DNA from: Candidatus Fermentibacterota bacterium
GTDB taxonomy: Bacteria > Fermentibacterota > Fermentibacteria > Fermentibacterales > JCC-6
Reading direction: 5' to 3'
NCBI GenBank assembly: GCA_963845085.1
Contig: CAWJQI010000004.1
Span: 672,001-736,000, forward strand
DNA length: 64,000 nt
In this document: piece by piece, positions 49,250 to 62,997 of the stretch
Numbering within the stretch: position 1 is the stretch's first letter
How the letters are laid out: every line of letters starts with the position of its first letter
Made by a program: the position numbers and the translations under genes
The notes under the pieces: generated by a model
What the model saw: only the letters and a program-made list of their open reading frames with translations
What the model was told of the DNA's origin: nothing
The model's database searches: none

Positions 49250-50395
49250 TCAGAAATTCAGCAACACGATCCTCGGGTAGTCCAGCGGGTCCTCCTCGTA
49301 GGCGGCGATGCCGTACCGGGTGACGACAAACGTCCAGGAATTCATTTCGGAAGGCCCTTCCGCCAGGCAGAGCCACTCCCCGGTTTCGGGATTGAAAAGG
49401 TCGAAAAGGGGTCTGTCAGCGTGCCCCCTCCTGGCCCACAGCCTCCCCTCCCTGTCGAGACCGAGCGATGCCACGGCATAGTGGTACTCGGACGGCGAAT
49501 ACTCCTGGCCCGCCATGGCCCGTCCGCCCCTTCCCATTGCCAGCATCTGCGCGCGTCGCTGCTCGAAAAGTTCGGTTTCTCCGGCCAGTTCCTCGGGTGT
49601 TTTTCGCACCGGCGAGTAGCCGGGTCTTTCGAGCGTGGTCCGGCTGTTTCCTTCCGCGTCGTAGACCATTATCCCGTAACGCTCCCATTCGAGGGGAGCA
49701 TAGAAAACAAGCGAGCCGGAAATCTCCATCGGGGGATCCGGCTCCATGAACCTGGCGGCCATGTCGTCGGGGTCGAAACGGCTCCACTCCTCGATGAAAA
49801 CCACTGCGGGCCGGGCACTTTCGGGACTCCACGCGGCCAGTGACTCCCCCGTTCTTCCCTGTTCGCGGTCGAAGAGACCCTGGTGGCCAACGATCATTCC
49901 ATCGCCGCCGTCGATTATGAAAGGAGCACGGGGGCTGAATCCCGCCAGGGTTCGCACGAACCCGGTATCGGCATCGAAAAAGTCGAACTCGGATGCACGC
50001 GGGTCGGTGACAACAACGAGGCCTTCATCCAGAACGGCAATGTCACCCGGGCTTAAAAACTCGCCGGGAGCTTCACCGGGCCCGCCGTATTCAGACATGT
50101 ATTCACCCCCCGGTGAATACACCCGAAGCGTCTGGCTGTTTGCATCGAGGACAAGAAGGCGCCCGTCCGGCAGAAACTCGACCGATGCGATCACCCCGAA
50201 AACGTATCTCGCATCTCCAAGTTCAATGCCCACCGAATCGACCGGGACAAGGGAGACCGAGGCAATCTCACCGGAGTCGGGGCCTGCTCCGCCGCAGCCC
50301 GCTGCAAGAACAAGAAGGGTCATGACTAAAGCCCGTTCAAGCGGCTGCACGGGCAGTCGCACGAAAGACCGGGAGGCCGGTATGAATCGTGTCAA
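49250..50395 (-). CDS. 6-bladed beta-propeller (TolB/NHL-like) lipoprotein
   Basis: AAGC lipobox; GGPGEAPGEF and DREGRLW motifs. Confidence 0.82.
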   Translation of the reverse strand: MTRFIPASRSFVRLPVQPLERALVMTLLVLAAGCGGAGPDSGEIASVSLVPVDSVGIELGDARYVFGVIASVEFLPDGRLLVLDANSQTLRVYSPGGEYMSEYGGPGEAPGEFLSPGDIAVLDEGLVVVTDPRASEFDFFDADTGFVRTLAGFSPRAPFIIDGGDGMIVGHQGLFDREQGRTGESLAAWSPESARPAVVFIEEWSRFDPDDMAARFMEPDPPMEISGSLVFYAPLEWERYGIMVYDAEGNSRTTLERPGYSPVRKTPEELAGETELFEQRRAQMLAMGRGGRAMAGQEYSPSEYHYAVASLGLDREGRLWARRGHADRPLFDLFNPETGEWLCLAEGPSEMNSWTFVVTRYGIAAYEEDPLDYPRIVLLNF

Positions 50396-56190: not shown

Positions 56191-56219
56191 TTGACCGACT
56201 GACAATTCAGTGGTACACT
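56191..56219 (+). promoter_or_regulatory. Sigma70-like promoter of the RCC1-repeat gene
   Basis: TTGACC-17 bp-TACACT with an extended TG. Confidence 0.6.
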
Positions 56220-56299
56220 ATTCGCTGTGGGATCGAGTTCCTGTTTTTCCGGAGAGAATAAATCCTGAGTTCGCACTCGGGGAACGGGGGTTGATCACA

Positions 56300-57532
56300 A
56301 TGAGGACATGCATTCTGTTCATCTCGGCATCAACCGTTCTTTTTTCCGCACAAGTCCGGGCTTCCGACGGCGAGATCATCGGCTGGGGCGCAAACGGGTT
56401 CGGCCAGTGCACGGTTCCACTTCCCAATTCCGGTTTTGTCGCCATCTCGGCCGGCGAGAACTTCAGCCTTGCTCTCGATGCCGACGGATCGATCACCGCA
56501 TGGGGCAACGACGATGAAGGCCGCTGCAACGTTCCTCTGCCAAACCAGGATTTCGTGGCCATCTCGGCGGGTTATGCCCATGGCCTCGCGCTCAAGTCCA
56601 ATGGCTCCATCGTTGCCTGGGGGCTGAACACCTACGGGCAGTGCGACGTTCCCGAGCCAAACACCGGTTTCATTGCCGTGGCCGCAGGCGAACATCACAG
56701 CATGGGGCTGCGGGAGGACGGTTCGGTCGTTGTATGGGGGAGGAATCAGTTCGGGCAGTGCAATGTTCCTGAGCCAAACGATGACTTCATTGCCATCACT
56801 GCGGGTGTCTACCACTGCATCGGCCTCAGGGCCGACGGTTCGCTCACGGCATGGGGAGGCAACTACTGGGGCGAGTGCAACGTTCCGGAGCCAAACGATG
56901 ACTTCACTGCCGTTTCAGGAGGGTGGGGCCACAACCTCGGTCTGAAGAGCGACGGAGAGATCGTTGCCTGGGGGATGAACCATCTTGGACAGTGCAACGT
57001 GCCCGACAGCGGGCCCTTCGTTGCGATCTCGGCATCCAACAGCCACAGCCTCGGACTGACCGCGGACGGTGTGATCGCTGCGTGGGGAGCGGGCGGTCCG
57101 GGCCAGTCCGGCTATCCCCATTACGGACAGAGCATCGTGCCCGAACCGAACGAAGGCTTCAAGGCGATCGCAGCGGGCTGGTTCCACAGCCTCGGCCTTG
57201 TGGGTGAGTTCACGAACACTGATTCAGAGGCCATTCTGGTGACACCTCCCGACGGAATCACCATCATGGCGGTTGCTCCCAACCCCGCGAGTCCCACGAC
57301 CACGATCGGTTTCATGTCACCCGGCATCGCCGACATCGAGCTCGAAGTGTTCGACATCTCGGGCCGAATCGTCAGAACCGTCGAAGCGGGTGATGCTGCG
57401 CAGGGGCAGCATTCAGTCATGTGGGATGGCACTGGCAACCACGGGGAAGCACTTCCCGCCGGAGTCTACATGGTCAGGTTGACCGGAGGGGGGCAGCACT
57501 CGGATGCTTCACGGGTGATACTGGTCAGGTAG
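56300..57532 (+). CDS. Secreted RCC1/BLIP-II repeat beta-propeller with FlgD/T9SS-like CTD
   Basis: About seven 39-aa repeats (WGxNxxGQCxVPEPNxxFxAISAGxxHSLxL); APNP...FDISGR...WDG...GVYMVRL. Confidence 0.88.
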   Translation: MRTCILFISASTVLFSAQVRASDGEIIGWGANGFGQCTVPLPNSGFVAISAGENFSLALDADGSITAWGNDDEGRCNVPLPNQDFVAISAGYAHGLALKSNGSIVAWGLNTYGQCDVPEPNTGFIAVAAGEHHSMGLREDGSVVVWGRNQFGQCNVPEPNDDFIAITAGVYHCIGLRADGSLTAWGGNYWGECNVPEPNDDFTAVSGGWGHNLGLKSDGEIVAWGMNHLGQCNVPDSGPFVAISASNSHSLGLTADGVIAAWGAGGPGQSGYPHYGQSIVPEPNEGFKAIAAGWFHSLGLVGEFTNTDSEAILVTPPDGITIMAVAPNPASPTTTIGFMSPGIADIELEVFDISGRIVRTVEAGDAAQGQHSVMWDGTGNHGEALPAGVYMVRLTGGGQHSDASRVILVR

Positions 57533-57581
57533 CCCCCGATCATCCGACCGCCCTTCGACATGTGCGCCTTCGGCAGAACAG

Positions 57582-59393
57582 TCAGTTGATGATCACGAAA
57601 CGCCCGGTATCCTCGAATCCGTCCGTGAACATCCTGCAAATGTACACACCGGGTGCCAGCACGGTCGTGAGAAGCTGGTGGTATCCCGCGGTCACCGCAT
57701 CCTGCTCATGATCCCAGACGAGCCTGCCCGTGATGTCGAAGACCGCCATTCTCACCCGGGAGGCCGAGTCGAGATAGAAGTCAATCACGGGAGCGGACAG
57801 GGCGGGGTTCGGTGTGATGCCGAGCAGGGCGGACCGCTCCGGAACGGGTATGTAGCCCTCTGAAAGCCCGGTCGACACCCATGAAATCTCCACCCGCTCA
57901 AGGATGGGAGTATCACCCGGCCTGTCCGAATTGAGGAGCACCCTGTACTGCACGTATGATGAACTGTCCGCCAGGTGATCGCTCAGCCTGCAGGGTCCGG
58001 TCAGAACGACCGACCAATCGCCCATCGCCGTGTAGTCGTCAGAGGCCCTGACCTGGAATGCAACCATGGTGCCGGCAGGAGTCTCCGCCGTCCAGTCGAT
58101 CGTGCCCCACATCGGGTCGCAACCGGTGTAAAGAATGCTTGATTCCAGTGCTCCGATGCCCGGTGAACGATCCCACCATGCAACGGCGTCTCCCGTCATG
58201 GCAGCACCCACGGGATCGAGGTCGCCGTCGGAATCCATGTCGCCGGCACTCACTGCGAATGCACCGCCGAATGTGGTGCTCAGCAGGTTCTTGGTCCAGG
58301 TGCCTGCGTCGTTCAAATAAAGTATTACGGCATTTGTCGAGTTGGATGTGGCCAGAACATCACCGTCGCCATCGTTGTCGATGTCGCACCCGTGAACGCA
58401 CACCGCTCCATCGAGCGCTTCGTCAACGAAGTGTTTCTCGAACACGCCTGACCGGTTCTCCCACCAGACCACGGCGTCAGCCACCGCAGCCGCCCCGAAA
58501 AGGTCTAGGTCACCGTCGGCGTCGATGTCGAGCGAGTGAATGAAGTAAACTCCATCGAAATCAGTGTCTATGTCATGCCTGACCCAGCTGGCGCCCTGGG
58601 CGTCCGCATTTTCGAACCAGGCGACATCGTCGGCATAGAATGCGCCTGCGGCGATATCGAGGTCACCGTCGCCGTCGTAATCGCCCGGGCTTAACGTCCA
58701 TGAGCCGTCGAAGGAGGAGCCTGCGACATGCTGTTCCCACTCCTGGCCGAGCCCGTCAGTGTTTTCCCAGCAGACCACCTCGTCGCGCGACATGGATGCT
58801 CCGAAAATATCGATATCTCCGTCTCCATCAACATCACCGACGGCTGCCGCATGTGCGCCCGCGAAACCGCCGCTCACAAGATGGTACTCCCATCTGTCCC
58901 CGGCACCTTCCGTGTTTTCCCACCATGCAATGTCGTTGCCGCCGTACAGTGTCTTGCCCGCTCCGACGAGATCGGTGTCTCCGTCACCGTCGATGTCAGC
59001 GGCAACGATGCTGCACGCACCGGGAAAACCGTCGTCAACGAGGTGTTTCTCCCATGTCAAACCCAGGCTGTCACTGTTTTCCCACCAGGAGATCTCACCC
59101 GCCGTCAGCGCCGAGCCTGCAACGTCAATATCACCGTCTCCGTCGATATCGCACGGGAATACCGATGTGGCGCCGTCGAAATCGTCCTCGACGGAAAAAA
59201 AGGCAATTCCCGATGTCAGACTGATCCTGTCCGGGGTCGACCATTCGATATTCACGGAAGCGGAGAATGCCTGGCCGAAATCCCCAACCGGACCGAATAC
59301 CCTGGGACCGGCTGTCCAGTCATCCTGCTCGGCGGTCACAGCCCCTGCAACAGACACAATGCACAGCATGAACACAATCTTGATCCCTGACAT
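57582..59393 (-). CDS. Secreted FG-GAP/VCBS repeat protein with T9SS-like CTD
   Basis: Seven DxDGDGDxD repeats, most followed by WWEN; TPNP...FDITGR...GVYICR. Confidence 0.9.
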   Translation of the reverse strand: MSGIKIVFMLCIVSVAGAVTAEQDDWTAGPRVFGPVGDFGQAFSASVNIEWSTPDRISLTSGIAFFSVEDDFDGATSVFPCDIDGDGDIDVAGSALTAGEISWWENSDSLGLTWEKHLVDDGFPGACSIVAADIDGDGDTDLVGAGKTLYGGNDIAWWENTEGAGDRWEYHLVSGGFAGAHAAAVGDVDGDGDIDIFGASMSRDEVVCWENTDGLGQEWEQHVAGSSFDGSWTLSPGDYDGDGDLDIAAGAFYADDVAWFENADAQGASWVRHDIDTDFDGVYFIHSLDIDADGDLDLFGAAAVADAVVWWENRSGVFEKHFVDEALDGAVCVHGCDIDNDGDGDVLATSNSTNAVILYLNDAGTWTKNLLSTTFGGAFAVSAGDMDSDGDLDPVGAAMTGDAVAWWDRSPGIGALESSILYTGCDPMWGTIDWTAETPAGTMVAFQVRASDDYTAMGDWSVVLTGPCRLSDHLADSSSYVQYRVLLNSDRPGDTPILERVEISWVSTGLSEGYIPVPERSALLGITPNPALSAPVIDFYLDSASRVRMAVFDITGRLVWDHEQDAVTAGYHQLLTTVLAPGVYICRMFTDGFEDTGRFVIIN

Positions 59394-59593
59394 ACCGCAC
59401 CTCCATTTTGCCTGATGCTCATTCATTCATGGAGTTGTGTCAATGGCACTTCCGTGATGCCGCCATGCAGTGGCGGCATCTGCCGGGGCAGTTTCTTGAC
59501 GCGTGCCGGCACGGGCGGTATGGTCAATTTTATGTTGCCATGAATGGTATTCGCCCGGCGTTCAAACCGGATCGGTTCAGGAAGGACAACTCA

Positions 59594-60184
59594 ATGAGAG
59601 CCCTGCCGGTTTCACTTCTGCTTGCCATCCTCACATCGGCCGTACCGGGTTATTCTGATGATTTACCGGGCGTCCCGGTCGAACTGCATGCCGCACCCCC
59701 CGAACTGATCATGGGAAGGGGGCTGATGAGCAGGGAGCGTCTCGTTGAATTCTTCATGGAGAACAACCCCGATGCCGATGAGGAAAGAGTCGCACTGCTC
59801 GCTTCCCTGTACATTGAGGAAGGCAATGCGGAGGGCGTAAACCCTGACGTTGCCTTCATCCAGATGTGCCTTGAGACAGGCTTTCTGCGCTTTGGCGGCC
59901 TCGTCACCCGTGACATGAACAATTTCTGCGGCCTCGGGGCGATCAGTGTTCAGCAGCCCGGCCTTTTCTTCCCGGACGAGCGAACCGGTGTGAGGGCCCA
60001 CGTGCAGCATTTGAAGGCGTACGGCTCAACTGAACCGCTGGTGGGTGAGCTTGTCGACCCCCGGTACCAGTATGTGAATCCGAAGGGAAAATCTCCGGAC
60101 ATACTGGGGCTATCGGGAACCTGGGCTGCCGACAGGCAGTACGGGGCAAAACTCGTTGAACTTCTGGAGCGGCTCTATCTCTGA
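59594..60184 (+). CDS. Glucosaminidase (GH73-like) domain protein
   Basis: QMCLETGFL, NNFCGLGA, GVRAHVQHLKAY and LSGTWAAD..YG motifs; signal peptide. Confidence 0.88.
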   Translation: MRALPVSLLLAILTSAVPGYSDDLPGVPVELHAAPPELIMGRGLMSRERLVEFFMENNPDADEERVALLASLYIEEGNAEGVNPDVAFIQMCLETGFLRFGGLVTRDMNNFCGLGAISVQQPGLFFPDERTGVRAHVQHLKAYGSTEPLVGELVDPRYQYVNPKGKSPDILGLSGTWAADRQYGAKLVELLERLYL

Positions 60185-60409
60185 CAGTACTGTCAGCCAA
60201 TTCCATCGCCAGCCCTTTGCAGAAGTCACGGCGGGAACACAACAGCTTCCGGCCGGGTAGGAAGAATCATACCTCTCTTCACCAGCAGATTACATGTTGT
60301 GAAGGCTTCTTTCATTATGTGCTTTTCATTGACGTGCGCCATGAGCGCGATTAGAGTCCTGCAAATCATACCATTCGCTCCAACTGCTTGAATAGAAGGA
60401 CGGACGGGG

Positions 60410-61579
60410 TTGAAAAAGGCAGGCATTCATGGAGTTTTCCGTTTTGGTCTTTTCATGCTCTTTTCAGCATGCGGGGGTCCTGCAGACAGGAGTTCAGGGC
60501 AGCCCGCCGATTCATTGATCACCATAGCTCCGTCATTCATCATCGGGGAAGACTCATTCGAAGGCGACTACGCATTCGGAGCTATTTCGGATGCGGAATA
60601 TTTCCGTGACGGCAGAATCGCCGTTCTGGATCGAATACAATGCAGGGCATCGGTGTTCTCGGGAACCGGCAGTTTCCTCTACTCAATGGGTTGCAGGGGG
60701 GACGGTCCGGGCGAGTTCAACAACCCCGACTGCATGGTCTGCATGGGAGACAGCCTGGTGATCTTCGACAGGCGTGCCGGCAGGGTTTCGGTATTCGGCC
60801 CGTCCGGTGAATACCTTGGAGAGCTGACCACAGCGGCAAATACTACTGCCATACCCACATACTGCCGGTACACGGGCAATGGAATCATCGGGGGCACCAC
60901 CTCGGTTGATCCAGGTGACGGGAGCGTCCAGAATCTCGTCTACCTCGTTTCCATATACGACATGGAGCTGAACCCCGTTGACACTCTGCACGCCAACCAT
61001 TTCGCCTCCACGCCTGATGACATCTCACAAACAATACAGAACACATATTTTTCATGTTCCTTTGCAGCTGATCCCTTCGGCAATACCTTTGTTGCGCCCG
61101 TTTCCACCGATGATTACCTGGTGATCGGCATCGATGCCGACCGTGACACGCTGCTCACCATCCGGAGGAACTTCCCCCGCATTGAAAAGACCCGGGAAGA
61201 GCTTGCCGAAGAGGCGAGACGTTTCAGCAGCGTCCTGATGGCGCGCAATCCCGGCCTCATCGTCGAGTACGAACCGGTGGAGTTCAGGTACATGATCCCC
61301 CCGAACGGGCTTCATGTCGATTCAAGCCGGAGGATATGGGTGCTCAGGGGTGCAGGCGGCGAGCCGGTGTTCGATGTTTACGGCTACGACGGAGAAAAGC
61401 TTTTCTCAACAAGGATCACCGGCATCGATCCGGAGGAAACCGGCGGCCTGCTCTGGTGGATGGTTAGCGATCACGGCCTTATGGCCTTTTCCCTTGATCC
61501 CGTTGATTTCCCGAAAGTTTACGTGTTCGACCTGCCGGATCTCACTCCTGCCGGCAATTGCGAGAACCCGACCGAATGA
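60410..61579 (+). CDS. 6-bladed beta-propeller lipoprotein
   Basis: FSAC lipobox; GCRGDGPGEF and VDSSRRIW motifs; resembles 49250-50395. Confidence 0.82.
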   Translation: MKKAGIHGVFRFGLFMLFSACGGPADRSSGQPADSLITIAPSFIIGEDSFEGDYAFGAISDAEYFRDGRIAVLDRIQCRASVFSGTGSFLYSMGCRGDGPGEFNNPDCMVCMGDSLVIFDRRAGRVSVFGPSGEYLGELTTAANTTAIPTYCRYTGNGIIGGTTSVDPGDGSVQNLVYLVSIYDMELNPVDTLHANHFASTPDDISQTIQNTYFSCSFAADPFGNTFVAPVSTDDYLVIGIDADRDTLLTIRRNFPRIEKTREELAEEARRFSSVLMARNPGLIVEYEPVEFRYMIPPNGLHVDSSRRIWVLRGAGGEPVFDVYGYDGEKLFSTRITGIDPEETGGLLWWMVSDHGLMAFSLDPVDFPKVYVFDLPDLTPAGNCENPTE

Positions 61580-61595
61580 AACGGAGGTGAACGAG

Positions 61596-61733
61596 ATGAC
61601 AAGACTGGAAGCACTGGAAGCGGAGATGGTGAAACTCATCGAAAAGGAAGTTCCGGTGGAACCCGAAGTCGACGATGGCGGCCCGAAGTGCGGGGCTGTC
61701 GCCACCGCCGTCAATGTCGTCGGCATTCCCTGA
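61596..61733 (+). CDS. Putative RiPP precursor peptide (45 aa)
   Basis: GGAGGTGA RBS. MTRLEALEAEMVKLIEKEVPVEPEVDDGG-PKCGAVATAVNVVGIP lies directly upstream of a radical SAM/SPASM gene. Confidence 0.8.
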   Translation: MTRLEALEAEMVKLIEKEVPVEPEVDDGGPKCGAVATAVNVVGIP

Positions 61734-61755
61734 GTTTGCACGACTGATGAGGCTC

Positions 61756-61792
61756 GTCGGCCTGGCCGGAATGAGGTTCCGACCAGGCCGAC
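61756..61792 (+). other. Strong stem-loop between precursor and maturase genes
   Basis: GTCGGCCTGG-C-CGGAA-TGAGG-TTCCG-A-CCAGGCCGAC: 15 bp with one mismatch and no U tract. Confidence 0.8.
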
Positions 61793-61814
61793 CAATGACG
61801 ATCCGGAGTGAACC

Positions 61815-62906
61815 ATGGCAAAGGGGCCTGTTTCGGTGACTGGAATGCCGAAGGTTCTGCAGCTGGACATCACGCACCGCTGCAATCTTCGCTGCATCTA
61901 CTGCTTCAAGAAGTTCCTTCCTTCGGTGTTGCAGAACGACACGACTGACGGTCCGGGTGCCGAAATGTCTCTCGAACTGCTTGAAAGGGTGGTAAGGGAG
62001 ATAGCACCGCACGGTACGATACTCGACATAACCGGCGGAGAGCCCTTCCTGAATGAGAGGATCTGGGACCTCATTCCGCTCTGTGTTGACTCCGGCGTCA
62101 GGTTCGAGATCGTCACGAAACACTGCTTTTCGGAAGCGGAGGCGGCACGGCTGAAGGATGCCGGGCTGGAAGGCATCACGGTCAGCCTTGATTCTCCTGT
62201 TTCAGAAAAGGCGGACAGGCTCGTAGGCAAAGCCGGCTTTTTTATTGAAATGACCTCAGGAATCGGGTTTCTTCGAAAACACGGGATAGCAGTCAAGGTC
62301 AAGGCTGTCGTCTGCGACTATACCGCAGATGACGTCGGAGATTTGCTCACGCTTCTCAAAGACCTGGGAGCATCGAAGGTGATGCTTCAGGAATTCAGCC
62401 ACAGCAGCTTCTCCCTTGCGAACAGAAAGCATGACGGTGAAGTCCTCAGGAACAACGCCCTGTTGTCCCTTGGTGATCAGAACCGTTCGTCGATCAAGAG
62501 CCTGGTGAAAAGCACATCTTTCGGCGGGATGGAAGTGATCGATCACCTGAACCCCGACGGCATGCCCACGAAACCATCGCCCTGTCCCGTCCTTCTCGGA
62601 CGCATGTTTCTAAGGCCGGATGGCAGGGTGCTGTTTTGCGGCCAGATACAGGAACTTGTCGTTGGCGACGCCAGAGACAATTCCATCTTCGAGATATGGA
62701 ATTCTGAGGAGATGGGGACTCTGATGAACCCCGAAAAGAAGCTGTTCGAGGGCACTGATTGCACGGCCTGCGACAAGTTTCAAAAGTGCAGCAGCCTGGG
62801 GCGTTGTCCGGGCTACGCTCTGCTCAGGTACAAGCGCCTGTTCGCGCCGGACGAAAACCGCCTCTGCCGTTACTTCGGCAGGAAGGCTGCGGCTGACGGA
62901 GGATAG
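61815..62906 (+). CDS. Radical SAM/SPASM domain protein, putative peptide maturase
   Basis: CNLRCIYC and TGGEP motifs; C-terminal C-x17-C...Cx2Cx5Cx5C-x19-C (seven Cys). Confidence 0.92.
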   Translation: MAKGPVSVTGMPKVLQLDITHRCNLRCIYCFKKFLPSVLQNDTTDGPGAEMSLELLERVVREIAPHGTILDITGGEPFLNERIWDLIPLCVDSGVRFEIVTKHCFSEAEAARLKDAGLEGITVSLDSPVSEKADRLVGKAGFFIEMTSGIGFLRKHGIAVKVKAVVCDYTADDVGDLLTLLKDLGASKVMLQEFSHSSFSLANRKHDGEVLRNNALLSLGDQNRSSIKSLVKSTSFGGMEVIDHLNPDGMPTKPSPCPVLLGRMFLRPDGRVLFCGQIQELVVGDARDNSIFEIWNSEEMGTLMNPEKKLFEGTDCTACDKFQKCSSLGRCPGYALLRYKRLFAPDENRLCRYFGRKAAADGG

Positions 62907-62997
62907 CCCACCGAAGTGTTTTCCGATCCTTGAAGGGTGAAAGGGAACGCGCGCCTTCAGGCAGGAATGCTCCGCGATGCATGAGTGAAGCCGGGAA

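Follow-up and report, generated by a model that had tools for sequence, protein, structure and literature searches.

A rare radical SAM/SPASM enzyme, an orphan single-cysteine peptide and a propeller lipoprotein form a candidate RiPP-like island in Fermentibacterota

What does a radical S-adenosylmethionine (rSAM) enzyme act on when the likeliest substrate nearby is the product of a 45-codon open reading frame (ORF) with no recognizable relatives? Three consecutive genes in the genome of an uncultured freshwater Candidatus Fermentibacterota bacterium raise this question. They encode a β-propeller lipoprotein, a small peptide and an rSAM enzyme with a SPASM domain, and lie in a 64,000-nucleotide stretch (the window, C4:672001-736000) of a 2.45-Mb assembly that is 88% complete. 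An initial annotation had proposed that they form a locus for a peptide that is synthesized ribosomally and modified post-translationally (RiPP), and its coordinates and both of its intergenic gaps, 16 and 81 nt, were reproduced here. Our analysis leads us, with slightly better than even confidence, to read the locus as a RiPP-like maturase–precursor module that operates without a RiPP recognition element (RRE), probably forms one thioether at Cys32 of the peptide and uses the lipoprotein as an extracytoplasmic partner.

The best evidence here that the three genes belong together is their co-inheritance. In two other species of the same genus (G064 and G062), an upstream glucosaminidase-domain gene and a downstream, convergent FGE-sulfatase-domain gene end with their stop codons 6 nt apart, and both are 72-78% identical to their copies in the window. 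In the source genome, about 2.8 kb separates the same two genes, and the last codons of the glucosaminidase gene differ from those of the congeners. Because this insert holds exactly the propeller, peptide and rSAM genes, the three have been gained or lost together as one unit. The GC content of the insert is lower (55.6%, compared with 60% for the window), and no close orthologue of its propeller occurs in the genus; both points favour gain rather than loss. No integrase or transposase was seen at the island.

The enzyme is very rare in public data and represents a clade with no curated family. It clearly falls within the radical SAM superfamily (PF04055, 63.8 bits against a cut-off of 29.5), and residues 257-319 score above the threshold of the SPASM profile PF13186 (37.4 bits against 21.5), pointing to a SPASM domain. 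The seven SPASM cysteines that the initial annotation had counted were all located, at C257, C275, C316, C319, C325, C331 and C351. The cysteines of the CX3CX2C cluster motif are invariant in three homologue alignments, and Cys167, on a barrel strand, is invariant in four close homologues. A Shine-Dalgarno sequence, GGAGTG, precedes the ATG of the gene and resembles that of the small ORF. The comparison with NCBIfam profiles that the annotation had recommended, for which we examined the best 25 of 65 matches, placed the enzyme above no curated cut-off: the best match was ScmE (TIGR04250; 87.5 bits against 400, residues 12-336), followed by PqqE (TIGR02109; 86.6 bits over the full length against 381.35) and then by AhbD, MoaA and GeoRSP. 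Against TIGR04133, which we take to be the Bacteroides rSAM-with-lipoprotein family, the enzyme scored 41.7 bits with a cut-off of 425, that score being the only point of comparison. A word-based search of 5.8 billion protein clusters returned three close homologues at 48-49% identity, two of them encoded on one 8,727-nt contig and the third a fragment on a contig of 1,987 nt, and the next relatives were only 28% and 26% identical. The other 69 genomes of the phylum contained no relative at E ≤ 1e-30. Scanning with patterns from the homologue alignment gave 174 stretches in one-genome-per-species contigs and 126 in viral contigs, none of them confirmed; in metagenome contigs 282 of 596 stretches were confirmed, and the best 80 comprised distant relatives only, with full-length identities of 21-27%. 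The best tblastn matches among plasmids are annotated pqqE and are about 26% identical.

By fold, the enzyme is closest to peptide maturases. In a structural ranking of its model (20-sequence alignment; predicted local distance difference test (pLDDT) score of 81.7), the nearest solved folds were SuiB (Z score of 25.0, root mean square deviation (rmsd) 3.4, 310 residues aligned), SkfB (Z 23.9) and PqqE (Z 23.8, rmsd 2.8), in agreement with the maturase assignment of the annotation, with anSME (Z 21.7), ChlB (Z 21.0) and CteB (Z 20.4) further down. Non-peptide rSAM enzymes, namely DesII (Z 22.9), Viperin-like enzymes (Z 22.1) and BlsE (Z 21.9), are interleaved with these maturases. The first barrel strand of the enzyme begins at residue 14, and since the alignments start at residue 98 of SuiB, 100 of SkfB and 82-91 of CteB, the enzyme lacks the N-terminal recognition domain of those proteins; the alignment to ChlB starts at ChlB residue 3. 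The only two PqqD domains (PF05402) in the source genome lie at C5:573164 and C1:393955, with none near the island. The enzyme thus has neither the N-terminal nor the adjacent PqqD-like RRE of an RRE-dependent maturase.

We then considered whether the small ORF encodes the substrate. Its ribosome-binding site, its neighbour-like GC content by codon position, its place in a co-inherited island and the complex prediction with its controls speak for a real gene. GC content at the three codon positions is 0.72/0.39/0.65, compared with 0.56/0.46/0.65 and 0.57/0.41/0.68 in the two flanking genes, a weak coding signal given that there are only 45 codons. The protein collection that we searched contains the 45-residue product as a called protein of the source contig, and two metagenome contigs, covering 61590-61740 and 61687-61837, show zero differences, with no variants in the small ORF. 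In the peptide, residues 3-18 make up an acidic, amphipathic leader helix; a linker of Pro, Glu, Asp and Gly follows, and then an aliphatic core, PKCGAVATAVNVVGIP, with the single cysteine, Cys32. Phe, Trp, Tyr and His are absent. These features bear out the earlier description of a very strong ribosome-binding site, an acidic helix-like leader and a hydrophobic core with one Cys and no aromatic residues, and the peptide has likewise remained outside every named family. It had no Pfam match at E ≤ 10, and BstC (E = 0.14) was its sole NCBIfam match at that threshold. The word-based search found only the peptide itself. HMMER, run in full over 1.84 billion representatives, added two long repeat proteins of 566 and 1578 amino acids to the self-match at E ≤ 0.001, and both were judged spurious on reading. 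A language-model Atlas gave a best score of 0.88 and no family. A tblastn search with the propeller and the peptide against 82 loci of distant rSAM relatives reached no better than E = 0.27 and E = 1.5. One earlier proposal found no backing, namely that the GG of the peptide marks the site of leader cleavage. Canonical double-glycine leaders carry a hydrophobic residue at position −4 from GG, where this peptide has Asp, and the 88%-complete source genome contains no match to the C39 peptidase profile PF03412. The GG may be a flexible linker rather than a cleavage site.

A predicted complex supports binding of the peptide by the enzyme. For the prediction, the peptide was the partner of the enzyme, which was entered as a four-row alignment of our own with SAM and three 4Fe-4S clusters added. 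The complex scored 0.71 (0.72, 0.67 and 0.71 in three runs), compared with 0.00 for the best of three controls. In calibration, 116 of 157 solved complexes attained the mark used for this score, as did 2 of 215 mismatched pairs; these counts apply only roughly here, because the alignment was our own and ligands were included. At least 53% of contacts were common to the runs, and the pLDDT of the partner was at least 54. The contacts of the model make a coherent interface. With its hydrophobic face (residues 3-4, 7-8, 10-12, 14-16 and 18), the leader helix lies on SPASM residues 280-282, 298-303 and 336-342, and core residues 31-36 (KCGAVA) lie against enzyme residues 192-204, 244-265 and 275-277, with Cys32 in contact with residue 257, the first SPASM cysteine, at an expected error of 4.8 Å. 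From this model and its controls, we judge it fairly likely that the adjacent enzyme has the peptide as its substrate.

The contrary explanation is that the small ORF is not a substrate, or not a gene, and that the enzyme instead modifies a small molecule, some other protein or the propeller before its export. In its favour, no homologue of the peptide was found, ORFs this short often arise at random in DNA of 60% GC, and small-molecule SPASM relatives (AhbD, MoaA and BlsE) score on a par with peptide maturases by sequence. Moreover, rSAM/SPASM enzymes that modify whole proteins exist, CrpC/CrpA being an example (PMC13692751). This explanation would have to accommodate a small ORF with a strong Shine-Dalgarno sequence at the right spacing and neighbour-like codon-position GC, a complex that passes against its controls with a coherent leader-helix interface, and a propeller that has a Sec/lipoprotein signal and no conserved cysteine beyond that of the lipobox. 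A second cassette in the same genome, described below, also places peptide genes between its rSAM and propeller genes. Taken together, we regard it as unlikely that the enzyme has a target other than the peptide.

If the peptide is the substrate, a thioether is the likeliest modification, because the SPASM domain has seven cysteines and the model places Cys32 beside C257. In addition, SkfB introduces just one Cys thioether, and in thioether synthases of the seven-Cys type, such as CteB, one auxiliary-cluster site is left free for a substrate Cys. We nevertheless hold this chemistry tentatively, at somewhat less than an even chance. In the mechanism that we propose, the amphipathic leader helix, through a face formed by L4, L7, M11, L14 and I15, would dock directly on the SPASM domain with no RRE. 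On docking, the core segment K31-A36 would enter the active-site cleft and Cys32 would come to lie next to C257. The enzyme would then join Cys32 by one thioether to a residue downstream of it (aliphatic, Thr or Asn) to give a small macrocycle. The same enzyme–substrate pair could instead perform epimerization, converting some Val, Ala or Ile residues of the core to D-residues as in epipeptides and proteusins, with no cross-linking role for Cys32. The core is nearly all aliphatic (four Val, three Ala and one Ile, plus Thr and Asn) with one Cys, the epimerase EpeE is among the structural neighbours (Z 15.9, rmsd 4.2-5.0) and the invariant Cys167 of the island enzyme, on a barrel strand, could donate a hydrogen atom. 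EpeE nonetheless ranks far below SuiB, SkfB and PqqE, no epimerase family occurs among the best 25 of the 65 NCBIfam matches, and the residue modelled beside C257 is Cys32 rather than an aliphatic one. Epimerization therefore seems to us improbable as the function of the pair.

Retaining the thioether-forming module as the preferred reading, we asked what the propeller gene contributes. The protein matches the DUF5128 profile PF17170 just above its cut-off and only over residues 57-154 (26.0 bits against 22.9), and its six-bladed model (pLDDT 82.1) finds NHL domains as top Foldseek matches (E = 2e-13). A signal and lipobox (...LFMLFSAC, residues 14-21), with Cys21 invariant in all 15 aligned homologues, identify it as a predicted lipoprotein. 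The initial annotation was right to place a propeller lipoprotein beside the rSAM gene and missed that it belongs to a large paralogous family whose members repeatedly adjoin rSAM maturases in this phylum. All 60 genomes of the taxonomic family contain matches at E ≤ 1e-20, in 3 to 20 copies each, and the source genome alone has 11 PF17170 matches. The best identity to the island propeller is at most 34% within the genus, compared with 46% in another genus. One paralogue elsewhere in the window (49253-50317, minus strand; C4:721253-722317) is 26% identical to the island propeller, with no rSAM gene noted beside it.

Genes for DUF5128 lipoproteins recur beside those for rSAM peptide maturases, with unrelated enzymes and peptides, since four of nine maturase-type rSAM genes in the source genome and 9 of 15 loci of one rSAM type across the phylum adjoin DUF5128-like genes. 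In a random-placement simulation, at least three such pairs in the source genome arose with P = 0.001 and at least four with P = 5e-5; two of the four are paralogous copies, so the fair count is three. Apart from the island itself, one of these pairs is the second cassette, on contig C5, where two tandem Cys-ladder peptide genes have an rSAM gene on one side and a DUF5128-like lipoprotein gene on the other; another is its decayed copy. In the remaining case, the C-terminal half of a SynChlorMet ScmF enzyme is encoded directly upstream of a DUF5128 gene. Two further propeller paralogues and phage- or toxin–antitoxin-like genes were noted near that truncated ScmF gene. Relatives of the C5-type rSAM occur in 12 of 70 phylum genomes and the island in 1 of 70; the 9 C5-type loci were scored within 1.5-kb flanks, and among the six others several run off the end of their contig. 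The second cassette resembles the island in combining an rSAM/SPASM enzyme, small Cys-containing peptides and a DUF5128-like lipoprotein, with the lipoprotein gene directly beside a peptide gene. It differs in its enzyme, which has a long N-terminal extension and falls in the neighbourhood of FlmE/OhkG and TIGR04463 (164 and 146 bits), in the periodic cysteines of its peptides and in its reversed gene order. In the literature searched, we found no description of an rSAM–peptide–DUF5128-lipoprotein architecture, no papers on DUF5128 and NVEALA, and nothing related on Fermentibacteria and radical SAM; a study mining Bacteroidales for RiPPs mentions neither propellers nor lipoproteins (PMC10352776).

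These adjacencies suggest a role for the lipoprotein outside the cytoplasm. Because the enzyme is cytoplasmic and the lipoprotein is exported, contact between lipoprotein and product would have to await export of the latter, and the lipoprotein may act as an extracytoplasmic partner of that product in binding or immunity. Lipoproteins of the LanI type serve in immunity to lantibiotics. A related possibility is that the modified peptide is not a free natural product and instead, once cross-linked, serves the propeller lipoprotein as a small subunit or as a ligand. In quinohemoprotein amine dehydrogenase, for instance, the small subunit QhpC is cross-linked by QhpD and accompanies the propeller subunit QhpB. 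The short distance between peptide and propeller genes (16 nt here and about 24 nt in the second cassette), the recurrence of the trio with unrelated peptides and enzymes, and the lack of an exporter or protease typical of secreted bacteriocins would all fit such a subunit. Most members of the propeller family, including those at all 34 loci of the closest homologues, stand alone, however, and the propeller is exported whereas the peptide has no export signal; a subunit function appears to us quite improbable. More broadly, DUF5128 propellers might be dedicated extracytoplasmic partners (binder, immunity protein or carrier) of rSAM-modified peptides, in an architecture assembled several times in Fermentibacterota with unrelated enzymes and peptides. 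The island would then be its most divergent branch, with a near-unique RRE-less enzyme that reads a leader helix through its SPASM domain and forms a single Cys32 cross-link. We consider this full scenario rather doubtful.

The 81-nt gap between the peptide and enzyme genes contains a further element. It folds at −35.6 kcal/mol (z = −3.64), a stability matched by none of 200 shuffles, and forms a hairpin with no T-tract on its 3′ side; a terminator scan made no terminator call there. Similar hairpins in other RiPP operons have such roles, and this one probably stabilizes the precursor transcript or tunes read-through, in that it would steady the message or pass part of transcription into the enzyme gene. 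Across from the hairpin and the start of the rSAM gene, positions 61755-61821 of the minus strand match the Rfam family PtaRNA1 (RF01811; E = 0.0019, 3.2 kb searched), which raises the alternative that the small ORF and the hairpin form a type I toxin–antitoxin pair with an antisense RNA of the PtaRNA1 kind. The match reaches only 30.9 bits against a gathering score of 47 and rests on the GC-rich hairpin, with the first helix of the model mostly deleted, and the longest hydrophobic run of the peptide, at 13 residues, is too short for a membrane helix. A toxin–antitoxin pair is barely credible here, and we keep to the maturase–precursor module.

Several observations weigh against this module as we describe it. 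The closest homologues of the propeller lack a downstream rSAM or peptide gene at every one of the 34 loci examined, the nearest relatives being followed instead by a gene for a Mg-chelatase-like ATPase or a rubrerythrin-like protein; taken alone, these stand-alone homologues suggest that the adjacency is coincidental. No search retrieved a homologue of the peptide, which leaves no comparative evidence that the ORF is coding or linked to the enzyme. Neither a protease nor an exporter nor an RRE is encoded in the island, and the search of the 88%-complete genome for a C39 peptidase came up empty; export and cleavage of the peptide are steps that we infer. The complex score is the model's own confidence, the pLDDT of the peptide is just 54-57, and solved maturase–peptide complexes may in part lie behind the pass. 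Finally, a single Cys in an aliphatic core fits epimerization about as well as it fits cross-linking.

Comparison with characterized systems shows that, by fold and logic, the island is an rSAM/SPASM RiPP-like system of a known kind that belongs to no named family among those tested. Sactipeptides and ranthipeptides have a Cys sulfur bonded to the alpha, beta or gamma carbon of another residue, and the island peptide offers a single donor Cys. Among the maturation systems for such peptides, SkfB/SkfA, CteB/SCIFF and PapB likewise involve an rSAM enzyme with auxiliary clusters acting on a leader-bearing peptide, and CteB has a seven-Cys SPASM domain like that of the island enzyme. SkfB and CteB, however, have an N-terminal RRE that the island enzyme lacks, its sequence similarity to maturases of the SkfB/CteB type reaches only E = 1e-7 to 1e-10 with NCBIfam scores far under the cut-offs, and the island peptide, with one Cys in an aliphatic core, shows no similarity to SkfA or SCIFF. 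PqqE is similar in size and likewise has no fused RRE, but it needs PqqD, which is not encoded near the island, and the Glu-Tyr link of PqqA requires a Tyr that the island peptide does not have. The ScmE match is not accompanied in the island by other proteins of the SynChlorMet cassette. ChlB is a further parallel, being an rSAM/SPASM enzyme of similar size (372-375 residues) with 16-17% sequence identity, although it cross-links aromatic residues, of which the island peptide has none. The titles of PDB entries 9gm3 and 9gmc indicate that ChlB was solved with the leader region of its precursor; PMC12912966 cites the work as Ruel et al., JACS 2025. ChlB may thus offer a precedent for leader docking without an N-terminal recognition domain. 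What is new in the island is the near-absent enzyme clade, the orphan single-Cys aliphatic precursor, the predicted RRE-less leader docking and the membership in a recurrent rSAM–peptide–DUF5128 architecture.

The coordinates of all features are collected in the table. Two promoter-like sites were found where shuffling predicts 1.0, which is weak evidence for the one upstream of the propeller gene, and the sequence after the rSAM gene folds no better than shuffles (z = +1.10), giving no sign of a terminator. The FGE-sulfatase-domain gene falls outside the island, and the congeners have conserved it too; its closeness to a SPASM enzyme therefore looks coincidental. An anSME-like role for the enzyme was considered and set aside, there being no anSME family among the best 25 NCBIfam matches and the FGE-sulfatase-domain gene not being part of the island. 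Upstream of the island (56210-59426), two large exported repeat proteins, both conserved in the congeners, are encoded: an RCC1-like protein of 440 amino acids on the plus strand and, on the minus strand, a 614-amino-acid protein with FG-GAP repeats and a type IX secretion system C-terminal sorting domain (TIGR04183, 28.5 bits).

Table. Features of the island, its borders and related cassettes. Positions without a contig prefix are those of the window; C1 and C5 are other contigs of the source genome.
Feature	Coordinates	Strand	Basis or remark
Inserted island, ~2.8 kb, propeller, peptide and rSAM genes	60181..62994	.	Two congeners lack it between the same flanking genes
Perfect 16-nt palindrome at the island's left edge, overlapping the glucosaminidase stop codon	60181..60196	.	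Read from sequence
Promoter-like site TTGACG-17 nt-TAGAGT, upstream of propeller gene	60329..60357	+	9 of 12 positions matched
Predicted DUF5128/NHL-type six-bladed β-propeller lipoprotein, 389 aa	60410..61579	+	PF17170, model, lipobox
Shine-Dalgarno GGAGGTG of small ORF, 6 nt before ATG	61583..61589	+	Sequence
Candidate precursor peptide, 45 aa, MTRLEALEAEMVKLIEKEVPVEPEVDDGGPKCGAVATAVNVVGIP	61596..61733	+	Starts 16 nt past propeller stop
Hairpin, 16 pairs, one interior mismatch, between peptide and enzyme genes	61756..61792	+	Fold calculation
Radical SAM/SPASM enzyme, 363 aa, without N-terminal RRE	61815..62906	+	Pfam, structure alignments
Codons of CX3CX2C radical SAM cluster motif (C23, C27, C30)	61881..61904	+	
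Codons spanning the seven SPASM cysteines (C257 to C351)	62583..62867	+	
FGE-sulfatase-domain (PF03781) gene, convergent with rSAM gene, outside island	62998-64158	-	Conserved in congeners
Second cassette, rSAM gene, 433 aa, long N-terminal extension	C5:860256-861557	-	
Second cassette, two tandem Cys-ladder peptide genes, 47 and 56 aa	C5:860089-860232, 859937-860107	-	
Second cassette, DUF5128-like lipoprotein gene, 377 aa	C5:858779-859912	-	24% identical to island propeller
Decayed cassette copy: rSAM split in three ORFs, 48-aa Cys-rich ORF (positions 1332-1478 of this locus, -), propeller gene split by frameshift (locus positions 446-1252 and 136-780)	C5:237084-241025		
Truncated ScmF gene abutting DUF5128 lipoprotein gene	C1:446159-448270		220-aa ORF, 309 bits, profile positions 152-352

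Four DNA runs, from freshwater and soil metagenomes of three studies, contain short contigs that match parts of the island at 97-100% identity, with no RNA run among the sequencing runs listed. Eight of the 14 differences listed for the rSAM gene in other runs are synonymous, a share that would be as expected for a gene under selection; 60 more differences lie across the whole 5-kb stretch. The six non-synonymous variants listed (A286V, M300L, G301E, N305H, E307A and N348S; window 62671-62734 and 62857) group together within or beside the SPASM surface on which the complex model places the leader helix.

If the pairing of enzyme and peptide is real, it adds an rSAM/SPASM maturase clade without a curated family, together with an unrelated precursor, and would provide a second case after ChlB of RRE-free leader recognition, here predicted to occur via the SPASM domain itself. 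Genome mining based on RREs would overlook such systems. The module is confined to just three genes in 2.8 kb and is therefore directly testable. For the organism and its phylum, propeller genes beside three different rSAM systems in one genome point to an unstudied extracytoplasmic step, which may involve binding, immunity or use of the modified peptide as a subunit.

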